From positions 22,155 to 86,154 of IMG/VR virus record IMGVR_UViG_3300010262_000137: 64,000 nt of DNA. The stretch is one strand, 5' to 3'. This DNA comes from a virus (lineage: Duplodnaviria; Caudoviricetes). A program made the translations under genes and the position numbers. The notes under the pieces were generated by a model. The model was given only the letters and a program-made list of their open reading frames with translations. It did no database searches and was not told where the DNA came from. Shown piece by piece: positions 3,333 to 32,854 of the stretch (position 1 is the first letter of the stretch; each line of letters starts with the position of its first letter).

Positions 3333-4272
3333 CGTTGCAGTTAAAGAAAGACTTGAGAACTACATGAAAGAAGCTGGTGTTTCTCAAGCAAAGATTGCGC
3401 CATTGATTGGCGTGAGTATGACAGCTCTATCACAGTATAGAGGTGGTAAATACAAGGGTGATGTAACAGCAGTAGAAGCTAAAATTGTTGAATATTTAGA
3501 CACTATTACTGAACAAGAGGAAATCAAAGAAAAGGTTCAAACATATAAACCGATAGATGATTACATTCCTATTTCTATTAGCGAAGACATTTATAAGATG
3601 ATTAGATACGCTCAATTAAACGGAGGTATCGCCATTGCCCATGGTGATGCAGGAATTGGTAAAACAAAAGCAGCACAGAAGTATGTAAGAGAAAATCCAA
3701 CGCAAGCAATCTATATGGAAATGAGTCCTGTAGCTGGAACTCTAGGCAATATGCTTAGACTTCTAGCTAGGACACTTAAAATTCCTGAAAGCAGAAACAA
3801 GATGGAGTTGATGCTTGCTATCCGAGATAAATTGGAAGGAACAAACCGAGTGATCATCATTGATGAGGCTCAACATTTGAAGTTATCTGCTCTTGAACAG
3901 ATAAGAACCCTTGCTGATCCAAACTCAATCACAGGAACAAAGGGTGTTGGAATCGTGTTAATCGGAAACACAGAGGTCTATTCAAAGATGAAAGGTAAAC
4001 AGGAAGCACAATTCGCTCAGTTATTCTCAAGAATTAAGATGAGCCGATACTATTCAACATCCAGTGTTACCGATGACGATGTAGAAAAACTATTCCCAGT
4101 ATTAAAACAACAAGGTTTGAATAAAGAATTAAACTTCTTAAAAGGTGTTTGTAAATCAAAATGGGGCATTCGTGGAGCGACCAATGTTTATGAAAACAGC
4201 ATTAACAATGATGATGTTTCAGTAAATGGATTGTTCGCCATGGCTAGAACATTAGGAATAGAGGTTATTTAA
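3325..4272 (+). CDS. MuB-like AAA transposition ATPase
   Basis: N-terminal HTH, Walker A GDAGIGKT, Walker B IIIDEAQHL; overlaps the transposase stop. Confidence 0.92.
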   Translation: MLNVAVKERLENYMKEAGVSQAKIAPLIGVSMTALSQYRGGKYKGDVTAVEAKIVEYLDTITEQEEIKEKVQTYKPIDDYIPISISEDIYKMIRYAQLNGGIAIAHGDAGIGKTKAAQKYVRENPTQAIYMEMSPVAGTLGNMLRLLARTLKIPESRNKMELMLAIRDKLEGTNRVIIIDEAQHLKLSALEQIRTLADPNSITGTKGVGIVLIGNTEVYSKMKGKQEAQFAQLFSRIKMSRYYSTSSVTDDDVEKLFPVLKQQGLNKELNFLKGVCKSKWGIRGATNVYENSINNDDVSVNGLFAMARTLGIEVI

Positions 4273-4377
4273 ATATGTTAAATACACTGATTGAAATAGT
4301 TCATAACATCTGCACTGCCATTGTTGTATATGCAATCTATGTAAGTATTAAAAACAATAAAGAGGAGAAAAGCGAAA

Positions 4378-22143: not shown

Positions 22144-22156
22144 GAAGGAGATTTGC

Positions 22157-27447: not shown

Positions 27448-27779
27448 TGAATGAAGCAAAGATAATCAATATGAACAAAGGAGCAAAGATTGACTATGAA
27501 ATTATGGGAAATAAAATTATTTTCAATGACGAATTAATGTTGAATCTTGCTAAGTATGAGCGTGATGACCCTATGCATATTGATATATGCATGGATGAGT
27601 TTGGGTGTTTGTGTATGGGATTGGCTAACAATTATATTGCACAAATTGATATTCCTGCTCGTGAATATGAGTTTGTTGAAGATGGTGTGGATGAAGAAGG
27701 AAAAACTAAATATAACAAGGTAGCAATTCCATTTGATATTAAAAAAGTAGTCATTACATTATGGGAGGTTGAAGAATAA
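27447..27779 (+). CDS. Tail protein, hypothetical
   Basis: Overlapping stop/start with both neighbours. Confidence 0.6.
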   Translation: MNEAKIINMNKGAKIDYEIMGNKIIFNDELMLNLAKYERDDPMHIDICMDEFGCLCMGLANNYIAQIDIPAREYEFVEDGVDEEGKTKYNKVAIPFDIKKVVITLWEVEE

Positions 27780-28858
27780 TGGAAACAAATTTTGATGCGA
27801 TCAAATTAGCAGTAGAAGCAGCTACTGGTGGAAAAAATACAGTATTATTTGATGATTTAGGTAATCCTTCAATCATGGTTAGAATTCCTAAATTTAAAAT
27901 TTCAGATGTAATCGCTGGTGGATCTAATTCTGTTCATCCTGCGTTTATTGTAAATGGTGTAGAAAAAGATGAAATATTCATAAGTAAATATCAAAATATC
28001 GTAGTAAATGATCGAGCTTATTCTTTACCGATGCAAGATCCAAAAGCTTATATTGATTTTGATACAGCAAAAAAAGCCTGTGAAAACAAAGGTAAGGGTT
28101 GGCATCTAATGACAAACGCAGAATGGGCTGCAATTGCTTTATGGTGTAAAAAGAATGATTACTTCCCAAGAGGTAACAACAATTACGGAAGTGATGTATC
28201 TTACCCTCATGAAAAGGGTGTAGAAACATATAACTATGACGGTAAAACTGGTAGAGTTGCTTCGGGTTCTGGGCCAGTTACATGGGCTCATGATGGTAGC
28301 AACTCAGGTATATTCGATTTAAATGGTAATGTTTGGGAATGGGTTGGAGGACTTCGTTTAGTTGATGGTGAAATCCAAGTCATCGCCGATAATAATGCAG
28401 CAAATGGTGCAGATATGACAGTGAATTCTAGTCATTGGAAAGCCATTGATAAGAGTGGAAACTTAGTTGCTCCAAAATCAGCTAATACATTAAAGTTTGA
28501 TTATACAGTAGATCCAGGTACTACAAATGTAGGAAAAGGAGTTCCAAAATTAGTAACAACTTTAACTCATCAACAAACAAGTGATGAACCATATGCAGCA
28601 GGACAATTTGAAGATATGACGGCAGATGATGGTATCACTCCACCAGAAATATTAAAGTCGTTAGCGATTTATCCTGAGGGAACAAAAGCAAATCATGGAG
28701 ATTACATCTATATGAGAAATAAGGGAGAGCGTTTGCCTTTTCGTGGTGGCCTTTGGCATAACGGAAGCACTGCAGGCGTGTTCGCTTTGAATTTGCACAA
28801 CCCACGCTCTTATGCTGACTATGATAGGGGTTTTCGCTCCGCTTTCGTAGGTCTGTAA
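27779..28858 (+). CDS. DGR target: Mtd-like receptor-binding protein with FGE-sulfatase/C-type-lectin fold
   Basis: WHLMTNAEW, GIFDLNGNVWEWV, C-terminal VR RGG..W...N.R....GFRS; last gene of the tail module. Confidence 0.9.
   Translation: METNFDAIKLAVEAATGGKNTVLFDDLGNPSIMVRIPKFKISDVIAGGSNSVHPAFIVNGVEKDEIFISKYQNIVVNDRAYSLPMQDPKAYIDFDTAKKACENKGKGWHLMTNAEWAAIALWCKKNDYFPRGNNNYGSDVSYPHEKGVETYNYDGKTGRVASGSGPVTWAHDGSNSGIFDLNGNVWEWVGGLRLVDGEIQVIADNNAANGADMTVNSSHWKAIDKSGNLVAPKSANTLKFDYTVDPGTTNVGKGVPKLVTTLTHQQTSDEPYAAGQFEDMTADDGITPPEILKSLAIYPEGTKANHGDYIYMRNKGERLPFRGGLWHNGSTAGVFALNLHNPRSYADYDRGFRSAFVGL
28733..28843 (+). repeat. DGR variable repeat (VR)
   Basis: 111 nt colinear with three downstream template units; encodes LPFRGGLWHNGSTAGVFALNLHNPRSYADYDRGFRSA. 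Confidence 0.95.
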
Positions 28859-28880
28859 TTTTGGCTTCAGTGTTCGGTTT

Positions 28881-28898
28881 TTGCCACGTGAGTGGCAA
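28881..28898. other. DGR target hairpin/cruciform downstream of VR
   Basis: TTGCCAC-GTGA-GTGGCAA, perfect 7-bp stem and 4-nt loop, 23 nt after the target stop; such hairpins are established DGR target-recognition elements. Confidence 0.75.
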
Positions 28899-28902
28899 TC
28901 AT

Positions 28903-28940
28903 TCCCACCAGCGATTTAGCTGGTGGGATTATTTTTTTAT
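28903..28940 (+). terminator. Intrinsic terminator ending the tail operon
   Basis: TCCCACCAGC-GATTTA-GCTGGTGGGA 10-bp stem followed by TTATTTTTTT. Confidence 0.85.
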
Positions 28941-28967
28941 TGTGTAAATTTTTACACATGATATAAT
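28940..28967 (+). promoter_or_regulatory. Promoter with overlapping palindromic operator for avd-TR-RT
   Basis: Extended -10 TGaTATAAT (28959-28967); perfect dyad TGTGTAAA-TT-TTTACACA (28941-28958) over the -35/spacer. Confidence 0.65.
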
Positions 28968-28982
28968 TTACTTGAGGTGGTA

Positions 28983-29486
28983 ATGATGGATAGTCAATTA
29001 GGATTGTATGAGACTCAGCTTGTCATACAGCAGGAGGTTTATGATATGTTACTATATGCCTATCCGTTGTTAGATCATTTTCCAAAGAGTCAAAAATTCT
29101 CTTTAGTTCAAGATATCAAAAGAAGTATGGATTTAGTTCTTAAATATGCAATTACTGCTAATAAAAAATACAGCAAGACTACAACGCTTGAAAAAATGGA
29201 TGTAGAACTAGCTGCTTTAAAGGTTTATATAAGATTAGCATTTGAATTGCATTTTTTTAAAGGCGAAAAGCACTATATGGAAATGTCTCGAAGATTAGAT
29301 AAAGTCGGCAAGATGTTAGGTGGCTGGATTAAGGCTGAAAAAGAAAAATCAGGGAATAAAGCTATTGAAAAAACATATGTTTGCGAGAAATGCGGTGCAA
29401 AAATAACTCCTAAATCTTATGAATATTCAATAAGGAATTTTGGTAAATCTCTTTGTTATGCATGTCAAAAAAGTCATAAGGATTAG
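28983..29486 (+). CDS. avd: Avd (accessory variability determinant) fused to a C-terminal Zn finger
   Basis: FPKSQKFSLVQDIK...LEKMDVEL..LK..IRLA...VGKMLGGWIK four-helix pattern; tail CEKCGAKI...YS..NFGKSLCYACQK. Confidence 0.9.
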   Translation: MMDSQLGLYETQLVIQQEVYDMLLYAYPLLDHFPKSQKFSLVQDIKRSMDLVLKYAITANKKYSKTTTLEKMDVELAALKVYIRLAFELHFFKGEKHYMEMSRRLDKVGKMLGGWIKAEKEKSGNKAIEKTYVCEKCGAKITPKSYEYSIRNFGKSLCYACQKSHKD

Positions 29487-29500
29487 ATGAATAGTGAGAA

Positions 29501-29567
29501 CTTTTCGTGTTGGCGTTGGATTCTGTACGCTTTGGCTCTGCTCTCCGAGAGGTTTTCGCTCCGCTCT
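29501..29567 (+). repeat. Degenerate, internally deleted template unit U0
   Basis: Keeps CTTTTCGTG(T)TGGC, ACGC and GGTTTTCGCTCCGCTCT; lacks the central GCAGGCGTGTTCG block. Confidence 0.75.
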
Positions 29568-29604
29568 ATTCTTTTATGCTATTTTGGGATTAGGCTATTA
29601 GCGT

Positions 29605-29715
29605 TTGCCTTTTCGTGGTGGCTCTTTCAATAATTCTAGCAATGCAGGCGTGTTCGCTTTGAATTTGAACAACCCACGCTCCAACACTTGGAACAATCTA
29701 GGTTTTCGCTCCGCT
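29605..29715 (+). repeat. Template unit U1
   Basis: 111 nt colinear with VR; 9 AAY codons; reads LPFRGGSFNNSSNAGVFALNLNNPRSNTWNNLGFRSA. Confidence 0.93.
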
Positions 29716-29743
29716 TTATCCTTATGGGATTAGACTATTATGA

Positions 29744-29854
29744 AGACCTTTTCGTGGTGGCGCTTTTTGGGAGCATTCGAATGCAGGCGTGTTCGAATTG
29801 AATCTGAATAACCCACGCTCTTATGCTGACAATGATAGAGGTTTTCGCTCCGCT
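29744..29854 (+). repeat. Template unit U2
   Basis: 111 nt colinear with VR; 5 AAY codons; reads RPFRGGAFWEHSNAGVFELNLNNPRSYADNDRGFRSA. Confidence 0.93.
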
Positions 29855-29892
29855 CTAACCCAATAAAGAGTAATGGGATTGGACTATATGAA

Positions 29893-30003
29893 TTGCCTTT
29901 TCGTGGTGGCAATTGGAATAACGGAAGCAATGCAGGCGTGTTCGCTGTAAACTTGAATAACCCACGCTCCAATTCCAATCACAATGTAGGTTTTCGCTCC
30001 GCT
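29893..30003 (+). repeat. Template unit U3 (canonical RT-proximal TR)
   Basis: 111 nt colinear with VR; 10 AAY codons; reads LPFRGGNWNNGSNAGVFAVNLNNPRSNSNHNVGFRSA; followed by a 163-nt spacer to the RT start. Confidence 0.95.
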
Positions 30004-30166
30004 CTGCTCTTGCAATTAGGTATATGATGGATACGTCTGTCATTTCAAATCAAGGGAATAAAGGAGTCTAATTCCATGCTGAACAAGCAAAAAAATATAT
30101 AAAGATGAAAACCGATTGTAATGTTAAATGAACTCCGTTAAGCATCTTAAAAATTAGGTGATGATC

Positions 30167-31321
30167 ATGGCGAAAATAAAGAATGTATATGACTATATCG
30201 TTAGTGATGAAAACATATACAATGCTTATTTGAACGCTCGCAAAAGCAAAAGATATAGAAAAGATGTACTCATATTTACTCAAAATCTATAAGCAAATCT
30301 AGTTAAGATTCAAAATGAATTAAGAAGCGAAGTTGTTGATTATCCTAAATATAGAGAGTTCTATATTTACGAACCAAAGTGTCGCTTGATTCTTGCTCAA
30401 GACTTTCCTGAAGTGATAAAACAGTGGGCGTTTTATCAAGTTTTAAGTCCTATGTTTACTAGGATGTACATCAAGGATTCTTATGCATGCATTAAAGGAA
30501 AAGGACAAATTGCAGCAATTAAAAGGCTTCATTATTGGCTTAAATTGGTCAATAGCAAAAGATACAATAAACTGAAAAACGGTTTAGATGTATCTGATTT
30601 AAACAAGTGGTATTACTTGAAAATAGACTTTAGCAAATACTTTTATAGAGTAGATCATAAAGTCATGATTGATGCATTGAAGAAGAAAATTAAAGATGAT
30701 CGTGTTGTTAGATGGCTTGAAACACGCATAGAAAGCCCTGATATGCCTTTTGGATTACCTAAAGGCATGCGTCCTGAAGATGTTGAAATGAGTGAACGTT
30801 TATATGATAAAGGAATGCCAGTAGGCGCTTTGGTTTCACAAATGTTAGCGAATGTTTACAATGATCAGATAGATCAATATGCTAAAAGGACATTAGGAAT
30901 TAAGTATTATATACGCTATCAGGATGATATTGTGGTGCTTTGCGATGATAAGAAACAAATAAAAGAATGGCATCATAAACTAGAGAAGTTCGCAAATGAT
31001 GTCATGAAAATGGAAATGAACCAAAAGACCTGTATTAGACCAATCAATCAAGGGATAGAATTTTGTGGTTTTCGCTTATGGGCTACACATATTAAAATAA
31101 GGAAAAGCACTTCCTTGAGAATTAAAAGGAACTTAAAAGGCGTGATGAAACGATACAATGAAGGAGATTGTACTTTAGAACACGCTACGCAAGTAGTTAA
31201 TTCATATTTTGGACTGCTGAAACATTGTAATAGTTATGCATTAAAAACTGAAATATTTGGTGATTATGAAAAAGGAATAGATGGTTGGTTTGTACTGACT
31301 AGAAATCAAGGTAACGATTAA
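30167..31321 (+). pseudogene. DGR reverse transcriptase with in-frame nonsense codon (TAA 30290-30292, codon 42)
   Basis: ATG 30167 with RBS AGGTG is in frame with ORF 30386-31321; ENIYNAYLNARKSK...QNL*ANL; LKIDFSKYF, GMPVGALVSQ, RYQDD, IEFCGF. Confidence 0.88.
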
Positions 31322-31786: not shown

Positions 31787-31871
31787 AGATGTAAAAGATA
31801 TTGTAATTACTTCAGAAATGGAAGAAGAACTTAACACTATGGGAAAAGGTGAAGAAGGAAGTGATGAATAA
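31779..31871 (+). CDS. 30-aa acidic micro-ORF between holin and endolysin
   Basis: RBS AGGAGG; MNEDVKDIVITSEMEEELNTMGKGEEGSDE*; TAATG coupling to the endolysin. Confidence 0.55.
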   Translation: MNEDVKDIVITSEMEEELNTMGKGEEGSDE

Positions 31872-32854
31872 TGGATTGGAAAAACTTAAATGCCGATGTC
31901 AATAAAATCATGAATAAACACTATACTAAGGGGCGTTCAGGACGAAAAATTGATAAAATAATCATCCATTATAACGCAGGTGATTTAACTGCAGAAGGAT
32001 GTTATTCTGTATGGCAAAACAGAGCAGCTTCGGCACACTATCAAGTTGAATCTTCAGGTCGTATTGGACAATTGGTTTGGGATGGTGATACAGCATGGCA
32101 TGCTGGCAACTGGGATGCCAACTGTTCAAGTATCGGAATTGAACATGCAAATAAAGCAGGTGGATATATTAGTGAAGCATGCTTAGATGCAGGAGCTCAT
32201 TTAGTTGCAGCATTATGTAAGTATTATGGATTGGGACGTCCTAAATGGAAGGTAAATGTATTCCCTCATAATCATTTTGCAGCTACATCTTGTCCTGGTC
32301 GATTACAGGATGAGCAAAGAGATGCTTATATGCATAAAGCTCAACAATGGTATGATCAAATGGTGAATGGGGTTGAAACTCCATCTAAACCAAGCGAACC
32401 ATCTACAGGTAAAAAAACTAATGAGGAAGTAGCAAAAGAGGTTATTGCTGGCAAATGGGGTAATGGAAATGAACGTAAGAGCAGTTTGACAAGTGCTGGA
32501 TACGATTATAATGTTATTCAATCGTTAGTAAATCAAATGTTAGGAATTCCAACGTCTGATCCAAAACCAACAAAAACTATTGATCAGTTAGCGGATGAAG
32601 TTATTGCTGGCAAATGGGGTAATGGTGAAGAACGTAAAAATCGTTTAACCAAAGCAGGATACAATTATGATGCAGTTCAAGCGAAAGTTAATCAAAAATT
32701 ACATGGAGTAAACAGTAACAAGTCCAATGAAACAATCGCTAGAGAAGTTATTGCTGGCAAATGGGGTAATGGAGCTGAACGTAAGAACCGATTAACAGCT
32801 GCAGGATATAACTATGATGCCATACAAAGTATTGTGAATAGTTTGTGTAAATAA
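31871..32854 (+). CDS. Endolysin: Amidase_2 domain plus three Cpl-7 (CW_7) cell-wall-binding repeats
   Basis: IIIHYNAG, ASAHYQV, AWHAG, SIGIEH, TSCPG; three EVIAGKWGNG.ERK..L..AGY repeats. Confidence 0.92.
   Translation: MDWKNLNADVNKIMNKHYTKGRSGRKIDKIIIHYNAGDLTAEGCYSVWQNRAASAHYQVESSGRIGQLVWDGDTAWHAGNWDANCSSIGIEHANKAGGYISEACLDAGAHLVAALCKYYGLGRPKWKVNVFPHNHFAATSCPGRLQDEQRDAYMHKAQQWYDQMVNGVETPSKPSEPSTGKKTNEEVAKEVIAGKWGNGNERKSSLTSAGYDYNVIQSLVNQMLGIPTSDPKPTKTIDQLADEVIAGKWGNGEERKNRLTKAGYNYDAVQAKVNQKLHGVNSNKSNETIAREVIAGKWGNGAERKNRLTAAGYNYDAIQSIVNSLCK

Follow-up and report, generated by a model that had tools for sequence, protein, structure and literature searches.

Several tandem templates contribute to one variable repeat in a diversity-generating retroelement of a gut phage

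The stretch of DNA analysed here (64,000 nucleotides, positions 22,155 to 86,154 of the 86-kb IMG/VR virus record IMGVR_UViG_3300010262_000137; hereafter the window) carries a diversity-generating retroelement (DGR) in a phage that we read as a prophage of a gut bacterium. Along the window, baseplate genes are followed by the DGR target gene with its variable repeat (VR), a terminator, the accessory gene avd, a tandem series of template units (U0, U1, U2 and U3), a spacer and the gene of the reverse transcriptase (RT), after which come holin-like and endolysin genes. The locus is a DGR with a tandem template library, in which three working cassettes (U1 to U3) and a decayed one (U0) all serve a single VR. 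We are highly confident that this VR is a genuine mosaic of several donors, made by reverse transcription.

All features of the element lie on the plus strand. The target gene (27779..28858) encodes a protein of 359 amino acids. The VR (28733..28843), delimited by alignment to the units, forms its final 37 codons before a tail of five codons, and 15 nt lead from the end of the VR to the stop codon. The template units U1 (29605..29715), U2 (29744..29854; homologous to the VR from column 4 onwards) and U3 (29893..30003) were likewise placed by alignment, and U3, the most adenine-rich of them, adjoins the RT side. U0 (29500..29565) has an internal deletion of ~41 nt, as judged by alignment to the full-length U0 of a relative (L007). 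The spacer (30004..30166; 163 nt), which leads from the last template to the RT gene, is presumed from its position only to be the equivalent of the Sp priming region of phage BPP-1. The avd gene is at 28983..29486 and the RT gene at 30167..31321. No further copy of the repeat was found in the entire 86-kb virus record.

The hallmarks of a DGR were found together at this locus: an RT of the DGR type, an adjacent Avd, differences between template and VR at adenines only, a VR at the C-terminus of a lectin-fold protein, an invariant template, and a GC-rich 3' element shared by VR and templates together with a hairpin. The locus departs from the canonical arrangement of one template per VR, as three full units and one remnant accompany its single VR.

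The initial annotation had proposed from a hand alignment that the VR is a mosaic of three templates, and a scripted comparison in a 111-nt register (starting at 28733 in the VR, 29605 in U1, 29744 in U2 and 29893 in U3) reproduced that alignment to the base, including its segment boundaries. The VR and the three units are colinear and without gaps, and four common blocks (TTGCCTTTTCGTGGTGGC, GCAGGCGTGTTCGC, CCCACGCTC and GGTTTTCGCTCCGCT) bound three variable segments. The last of these blocks, 15 nt long (28829..28843 in the VR), is identical in the VR and all units, both here and in all relatives. No single unit explains the VR, as it differs at non-adenine positions 16 times from U1, 17 times from U2 and 11 times from U3. 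In contrast, a dynamic-programming search recovered a path from U3 through U1 to U2 with two switches, no non-A mismatch and seven differences at donor adenines. Segment A (28751-28771) was assigned to U3, with four differences, all four at donor A; segment B (28784-28801) to U1, with a single difference at a donor A; and segment C (28808-28828) to U2, with two differences, both at donor A. Both switch intervals fall, as had been claimed, inside blocks that are identical across the units and that measure 14 and 11 nt.

The blockiness of the VR is not due to chance, because none of 1000 column shuffles matched it: with shuffled columns a path with zero non-A mismatches needed 11.8 switches on average (minimum 5), and two or fewer switches sufficed in 0/1000. 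The weakest link is segment B, as the initial annotation had cautioned, where only two non-A sites discriminate U1 from U2 and three discriminate it from U3. The units also differ at non-adenine positions of the scaffold; the segment-A codons, for instance, read SFNNSSN, AFWEHSN and NWNNGSN. We also considered that U1 and U2 might be archived, adenine-mutagenised copies of U3, and rejected this since both have many non-A differences from U3.

The strongest evidence comes from near-isogenic contigs of other samples, which were retrieved by exact matches to two neighbouring proteins. In their flanks they are 99.8-100% identical to the window, and the 399-nt array from U1 to U3 is identical at 399/399 positions in eight assemblies. 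The VRs beside this array differ. Two different VRs derive from U3 only (L118 and L132), one from U1 only (L120, with a 1-nt deletion) and one from U2 only (L127). The mixed VRs have, for segments A, B and C, the donors U3-U3-U2 (L122), U3-U2-U2 (L130) and U3-U2-U3 (L134, with a 1-nt insertion), while in L135, a contig without the 5' part of the VR, the first donor is U1 or U3 and the others are U2 and U2. The window's own mosaic was seen once more, in a MEGAHIT contig (L121) that is 100% identical over 7.8 kb and possibly comes from the same sample. In each near-isogenic locus the differences between VR and donor are at adenines. Altogether the set contains nine different VRs, of which five are mosaics. 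Two of them (L127 and L130) come from one assembly, ERZ28642270, so that this sample contains two VR alleles side by side. Many of the near-isogenic contigs begin or end exactly at the VR.

Since identical arrays accompany U3-only, U1-only, U2-only and mixed VRs, all three units act as donors within one phage background, as the initial annotation had supposed when it treated each unit as an adenine-mutagenised donor. The array thus behaves as an invariant template set and the VR as the part that is rewritten. Information flows one way, from the array to the VR, because the array stays identical at 399/399 positions while the VRs differ.

The wider family was searched with a pattern that required two tandem units. 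This recovered the tandem array in six IMG/VR contigs, 13 human-gut metagenome contigs and three genomes (Holdemanella sp. MSK.7.32, Eubacterium sp. TM05-53 and a Holdemanella metagenome-assembled genome (MAG)). These three were the only ones with the array among 401 genomes searched in the host family, and blastn of the locus gave no match in the INPHARED phages. More distant relatives, with arrays of two to four units, contributed 14 distinct VRs: five have a single donor (U1, U2 or U3) and nine are mosaics. When the near-isogenic VRs are added, the total rises to 22 distinct VRs, of which 13 are mosaic and nine have a single donor. The outcome that would have spoken against the initial annotation, homologous VRs that always match one unit, did not occur; VRs that switch donor while differing almost only at adenines recur. 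They include a U3-U2 mosaic in the isolate genome of Holdemanella sp. MSK.7.32 and mosaics of two donors from a diverged clade that has four different cassettes (L011 and L100). Among the donor combinations observed were U3-U1-U2, U3-U3-U2, U3-U2-U2, U3-U2-U3, U1-U1-U3, U2-U3-U3 and others. The 3x3x3 segment combinations of the initial annotation hold as an upper bound and not as a measured repertoire.

The junctions of the family lie in the conserved blocks, with a sole exception inside segment C of L092. Across 12 VRs, 36 of 74 donor adenines were changed in segment A (49%), 28 of 68 in segment B (41%) and 31 of 94 in segment C (33%), which amounts to 95 of 236 (~40%). The same 12 VRs contain six non-A mismatches in total, three of which vanish if one extra switch is allowed. 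Because each of the three segments shows changes at about 40% of its donor adenines, the segments were installed by mutagenic copying rather than by faithful DNA conversion. The caveat on segment B is real but small, since non-A mismatches are rare in the family and U1 donates in L120 as well.

Target homologues at a greater distance (about 50-60% identity) have an ordinary single AAC-rich template. Sequence related to window positions 28300-30400 was also seen, at <=0.35 of the sampled words, in Logan contigs of bovine-gut and other animal-gut metagenomes and of three coded organisms; owing to the animal-gut contigs, the phage family is not confined to human-gut assemblies. The Logan contigs only hint at further U1-like and U3-like VRs and were excluded from the VR counts. 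In three VRs a 1-nt indel breaks the frame of the target gene (L120:6287-6396; L134, with the VR upstream of avd at 1106; and L094, reverse strand, 3450-3559). These indels may be errors of the RT or assembly errors at low coverage.

The cassettes share a common build. In front of each unit stands a copy of the 3' end of avd (GGATTAG...), and the final 15 nt of each are shared with the VR. Their adenine content declines with distance from the RT, from 23.5 in U3 to 20.8 in U2, 20.1 in U1 and 11 in U0. The full-length U0 alleles (L007:6719-6829 and L094, reverse strand, 4219-4329) have 10-12 A, compared with 20-27 in working units, and are in this respect adenine-poor like a VR. In L093 the slot of U1 (reverse strand, 753-863) is bounded by U1 flanks at either end, and its content is a U2 copy that departs from U2 at eight positions, all of them A sites. 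The U1 slot of L006 (6777-6887) has the same altered, U2-derived and A-mutagenised 5' segment as L093, joined to its original 3' part. As these two slots hold altered U2 sequence, a cassette slot can at times receive a mutagenised copy of a neighbouring cassette in place of its own sequence. We dropped the further idea that cassettes are frequent recipients of adenine mutagenesis, since polymorphism between orthologous alleles fell on adenines in 19 of 37 cases versus 245 of 398 in the flanks (p 0.22), and the near-isogenic array is invariant.

Two further observations concern the integrity of the arrays. In the Holdemanella MAG, which has two cassettes, the first (L106:5805-5915) is a hybrid of U1 and U2, with segments A and B of U1, a U2-like segment C and the 3' flank of U2; a deletion by recombination between cassettes would produce such a hybrid. 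In four contigs (L008:2603-3001, L009:5964-6145, L096:749-1008 and L119:6287-6685) the target is joined straight to cassette flanks, without avd and the 3' flank of the VR. Most probably the assemblies collapsed through the repeat here, though the deletions may be real. Loci of this kind call for caution in automated DGR calling.

How the mosaic was formed can be considered in the light of BPP-1. There, the starting point of transfer is fixed and lies within the GC-rich 3' element, at least 8 bp of identity suffice for integration at the 5' side, and cryptic internal 5' sites are used when the normal one is absent (PMC3240598). Synthesis of cDNA in BPP-1 requires 20 nt of avd before the template repeat (TR) and the spacer behind it (PMC6182149). 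We favour a process of nested, successive partial retrohoming, to which we assign a probability of roughly 0.45. Each cassette would be transcribed, probably within one transcript of avd, array and RT. The RT would copy it, misincorporating at adenines, and the product would be written into the VR. A cDNA copied from any cassette but the last writer would pair with the VR only at the four conserved blocks. Because it matches the resident VR nowhere else, partial replacement anchored at the 3' side would be expected. Each partial event would thus be anchored at the 3' block GGTTTTCGCTCCGCT, and its 5' side would be resolved at whichever block pairs with the resident VR, namely TTGCCTTTTCGTGGTGGC, GCAGGCGTGTTCGC or CCCACGCTC. 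For the window, the order would be a full U3 event, then a U1 event resolved in GCAGGCGTGTTCGC, and finally a U2 event resolved in CCCACGCTC. The RT of the window copy would have been lost to a nonsense codon afterwards, leaving the mosaic as a frozen product.

Several observations weigh against nested partial retrohoming. The U3-U2-U3 VR of L134 would take three separate nested events, versus two jumps of an RT that changes templates. A strictly 3'-anchored process would not directly yield the U1 slot of L006, in which only the 5' part was replaced. Only U3 adjoins the spacer that primes cDNA synthesis in BPP-1, which leaves priming on U1 and U2 unexplained, and the RT of the window is broken. 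Moreover, most of the sequences are metagenome assemblies. The passage through RNA, the anchoring at the 3' side and the succession of events are inferred.

The strongest alternative is copy-choice, in which the RT would switch among cassettes at the conserved blocks within one cDNA, and the chimera would replace the whole VR in a single event. We hold this to be a serious though somewhat less probable explanation. The cassettes lie within 400 nt, and no terminator was found from avd to the end of the RT gene, so that avd, array and RT are probably on one RNA. The junctions are in blocks identical across units, and only two jumps are needed for U3-U1-U2 as well as for U3-U2-U3. A start beside the sole spacer, followed by a jump within the shared 15-nt block, would account for the use of U1 and U2, and copy-choice is also consistent with the 5'-only replacement in L006. 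Template switching by a DGR RT is already a proposal in the field, as the 5' integration step of BPP-1 has been suggested to be a template switch from the RNA to the target DNA (PMC3240598). However, template switching of a DGR RT from RNA to RNA was not found in the literature searched, the phrase 'template switching' is absent from PMC6182149, and the BPP-1 particle of RT, Avd and RNA gives a privileged start and short cDNAs. In-patch installation of cDNA, successive partial homing and copy-choice all fit the data, and sequence alone cannot separate nested homing from copy-choice.

Recombination of DNA independent of the RT is an unlikely source of the mosaics. It would act through gene conversion from cassette to VR, or through crossovers between VR alleles of co-infecting phages, with adenine mutagenesis as a separate and earlier process. 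Exact cassette copies do occur, as segment C of L122 and as segment A of L127 and L106; the cassettes themselves recombine, as indicated by the L106 hybrid with its deletion; and two VR alleles coexist in one sample. Most mosaics, however, have their own A-site changes in every segment, which is unlike faithful conversion after the last homing event. The crossovers would also have to fall repeatedly in blocks of 9-14 nt within 111 nt, despite kilobases of near-identical flank, and the array is identical at 399/399 positions while the VRs differ, which again points to one-way flow.

We regard it as quite improbable that the array once held a hybrid U3/U1/U2 template, since lost or replaced, from which the VR was copied. 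Hybrid or overwritten cassettes do exist in relatives (L106 and the U1 slot of L093), but a separate lost hybrid would be needed for each mosaic among 13 VRs, a matching hybrid was found in none, and the near-isogenic array is identical in eight assemblies though five of the nine VRs beside it are mosaic. That assemblers threaded reads of different VR variants, or of VR and template, into chimeric VRs is least credible of all: although joins around the repeat are chimeric in L008, L009, L096 and L119 and contig breaks at the VR are frequent, every segment in the window's VR has private A-site changes and so none equals template sequence, the junction blocks of 14 and 11 nt are below any usual assembly k-mer, the same VR stands in a second record (the MEGAHIT contig, though this may be the same sample), and mosaics recur in 13 assemblies from different pipelines and in an isolate genome.

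Among the closest described systems is BPP-1 (mtd with its VR, avd, TR, spacer, brt). Both systems have the gene order target with VR, avd, template, spacer and RT, differences between template and VR restricted to adenines, a C-terminal VR in a receptor-binding protein of the lectin fold, a GC-rich block common to the 3' ends of VR and template, a hairpin downstream of the VR, and a copy of the avd 3' end before the template. The block GGTTTTCGCTCCGCT occupies the place of the (GC)14 part of the BPP-1 IMH. Unlike BPP-1, which has one template, the window has three working and one decayed template in tandem, of which only the last adjoins the spacer; its VR is built from segments of several templates; and its Avd adds a CxxC-N20-CxxC tail. 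The system of TaqVP (PDB 5vf4; PMC6328139) has a full-length homologue of the target, also with a C-terminal VR, but is described with a single TR and belongs to another host and mobile context.

More than one TR per RT has been reported (PMC6642488, PMC11661182, PMC12386605), with each TR paired with its own VR or with such cases set aside; in one of these surveys VRs matched by two or more TRs were noted and then removed (PMC11661182). None of the three reports has a single VR derived from several TRs, as in the window. Multi-TR cases are not discussed by Wu et al. and Roux et al. We found no description of mosaic VRs, or of several TRs feeding one VR, in the full-text literature searched, a scope that excludes most subscription journals.

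Mosaics with block junctions also arise by cassette gene conversion, as in Neisseria pilE/pilS, Borrelia vlsE/vls and the chicken immunoglobulin pseudo-V genes, where a silent, promoterless array lies in register beside one expressed locus. Those systems copy DNA faithfully and without a reverse transcriptase. In contrast, the segments at the present locus carry adenine-specific changes (33-49% of donor A), and the locus encodes an RT and an Avd. The likeness is one of function alone.

In the accepted view, a DGR changes only amino acids encoded at template adenines, and one template fixes the scaffold. A template library combined with segmental mixing lifts this limit, as non-adenine positions change in three stretches of the binding site, and the reachable repertoire is multiplied. 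The data support the view of a multi-template DGR in which segmental mixing and template choice come on top of adenine mutagenesis. This bears on the retargeting of hosts by gut phages and on DGR-based directed-evolution tools, in which several templates could be mixed. It also bears on software that searches for DGRs at multi-TR loci, as at least one survey removed such cases (PMC11661182). Furthermore, the locus is a natural system in which the 5' integration or template-switching step of retrohoming leaves a readable record. As a tentative extension, tandem template libraries might be a programmed second layer of DGR diversification, in which the RT-Avd complex, with its zinc-ribbon tail, picks cassettes and actively recombines them at conserved joints, and such libraries might be widespread among gut phage DGRs that present pipelines discard as 'multi-TR'. 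If so, the phage would search scaffold (non-adenine) space combinatorially in addition to the adenine-coded positions, which would be, for a retroelement, the equivalent of immunoglobulin gene conversion coupled with hypermutation.

The target protein matches Pfam FGE-sulfatase and is a variable protein of the C-type-lectin/FGE-sulfatase fold. It is a full-length homologue of the DGR variable protein of Thermus aquaticus (PDB 5vf4; E 7e-75 over residues 6-357). It follows genes of baseplate families and is read as a tail-associated binding protein with the VR at its tip. A hairpin with a 7-bp stem and a GNNA-type tetraloop (28881..28898) lies 37 nt 3' of the VR, in a region with a DNA fold z-score of -4.96, and is a candidate DGR target-recognition element. 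In 11 relatives its stem is kept and its loop varies (GTGA, GTAA, GCTA, GCAA), while single-template relatives have different stems at the equivalent position. The intrinsic terminator of the target gene follows at 28903..28928, with a 10-bp stem and then a T run.

Avd has 167 amino acids from the ATG chosen by the gene caller (a GTG at 28977 is also open) and matches Pfam bAvd (E 1.9e-26) and the PHROG 'Avd protein of DGR' (E 4e-34). Its C-terminal CxxC-N20-CxxC extension (window 29361-29486, residues about 127-167) is zinc-ribbon-like. The extension was carried by all four multi-template relatives that were checked and by none of seven single-template relatives, a link between tail and array that is a correlation only, within a single clade.

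The RT matches RVT_1 (E 5.9e-15), and its translation contains VGALVSQ, which fits the [LIV]GxxxSQ motif typical of DGR RTs. Its reading frame is interrupted by a TAA at 30290-30292 (codon 42), where 12 relatives and three near-isogenic copies have GAA. The nonsense codon thus appears to be private to the window copy, and the element of the window is therefore most likely inactive, with its VR probably a frozen record of earlier events. A sequencing error may also be behind the TAA; L121, the only contig without a difference from the window, stops exactly one base short of this codon. Recoding of the stop codon was rejected, since the adjacent open reading frames are closely packed without interruption, and GAA stands at this codon in all relatives.

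Downstream of the RT, the endolysin gene (31871-32854) contains three direct repeats of ~130 nt each at 32413-32848. Near-isogenic copies of this gene carry Pfam CW_7, and the repeats are probably ordinary cell-wall-binding repeats.

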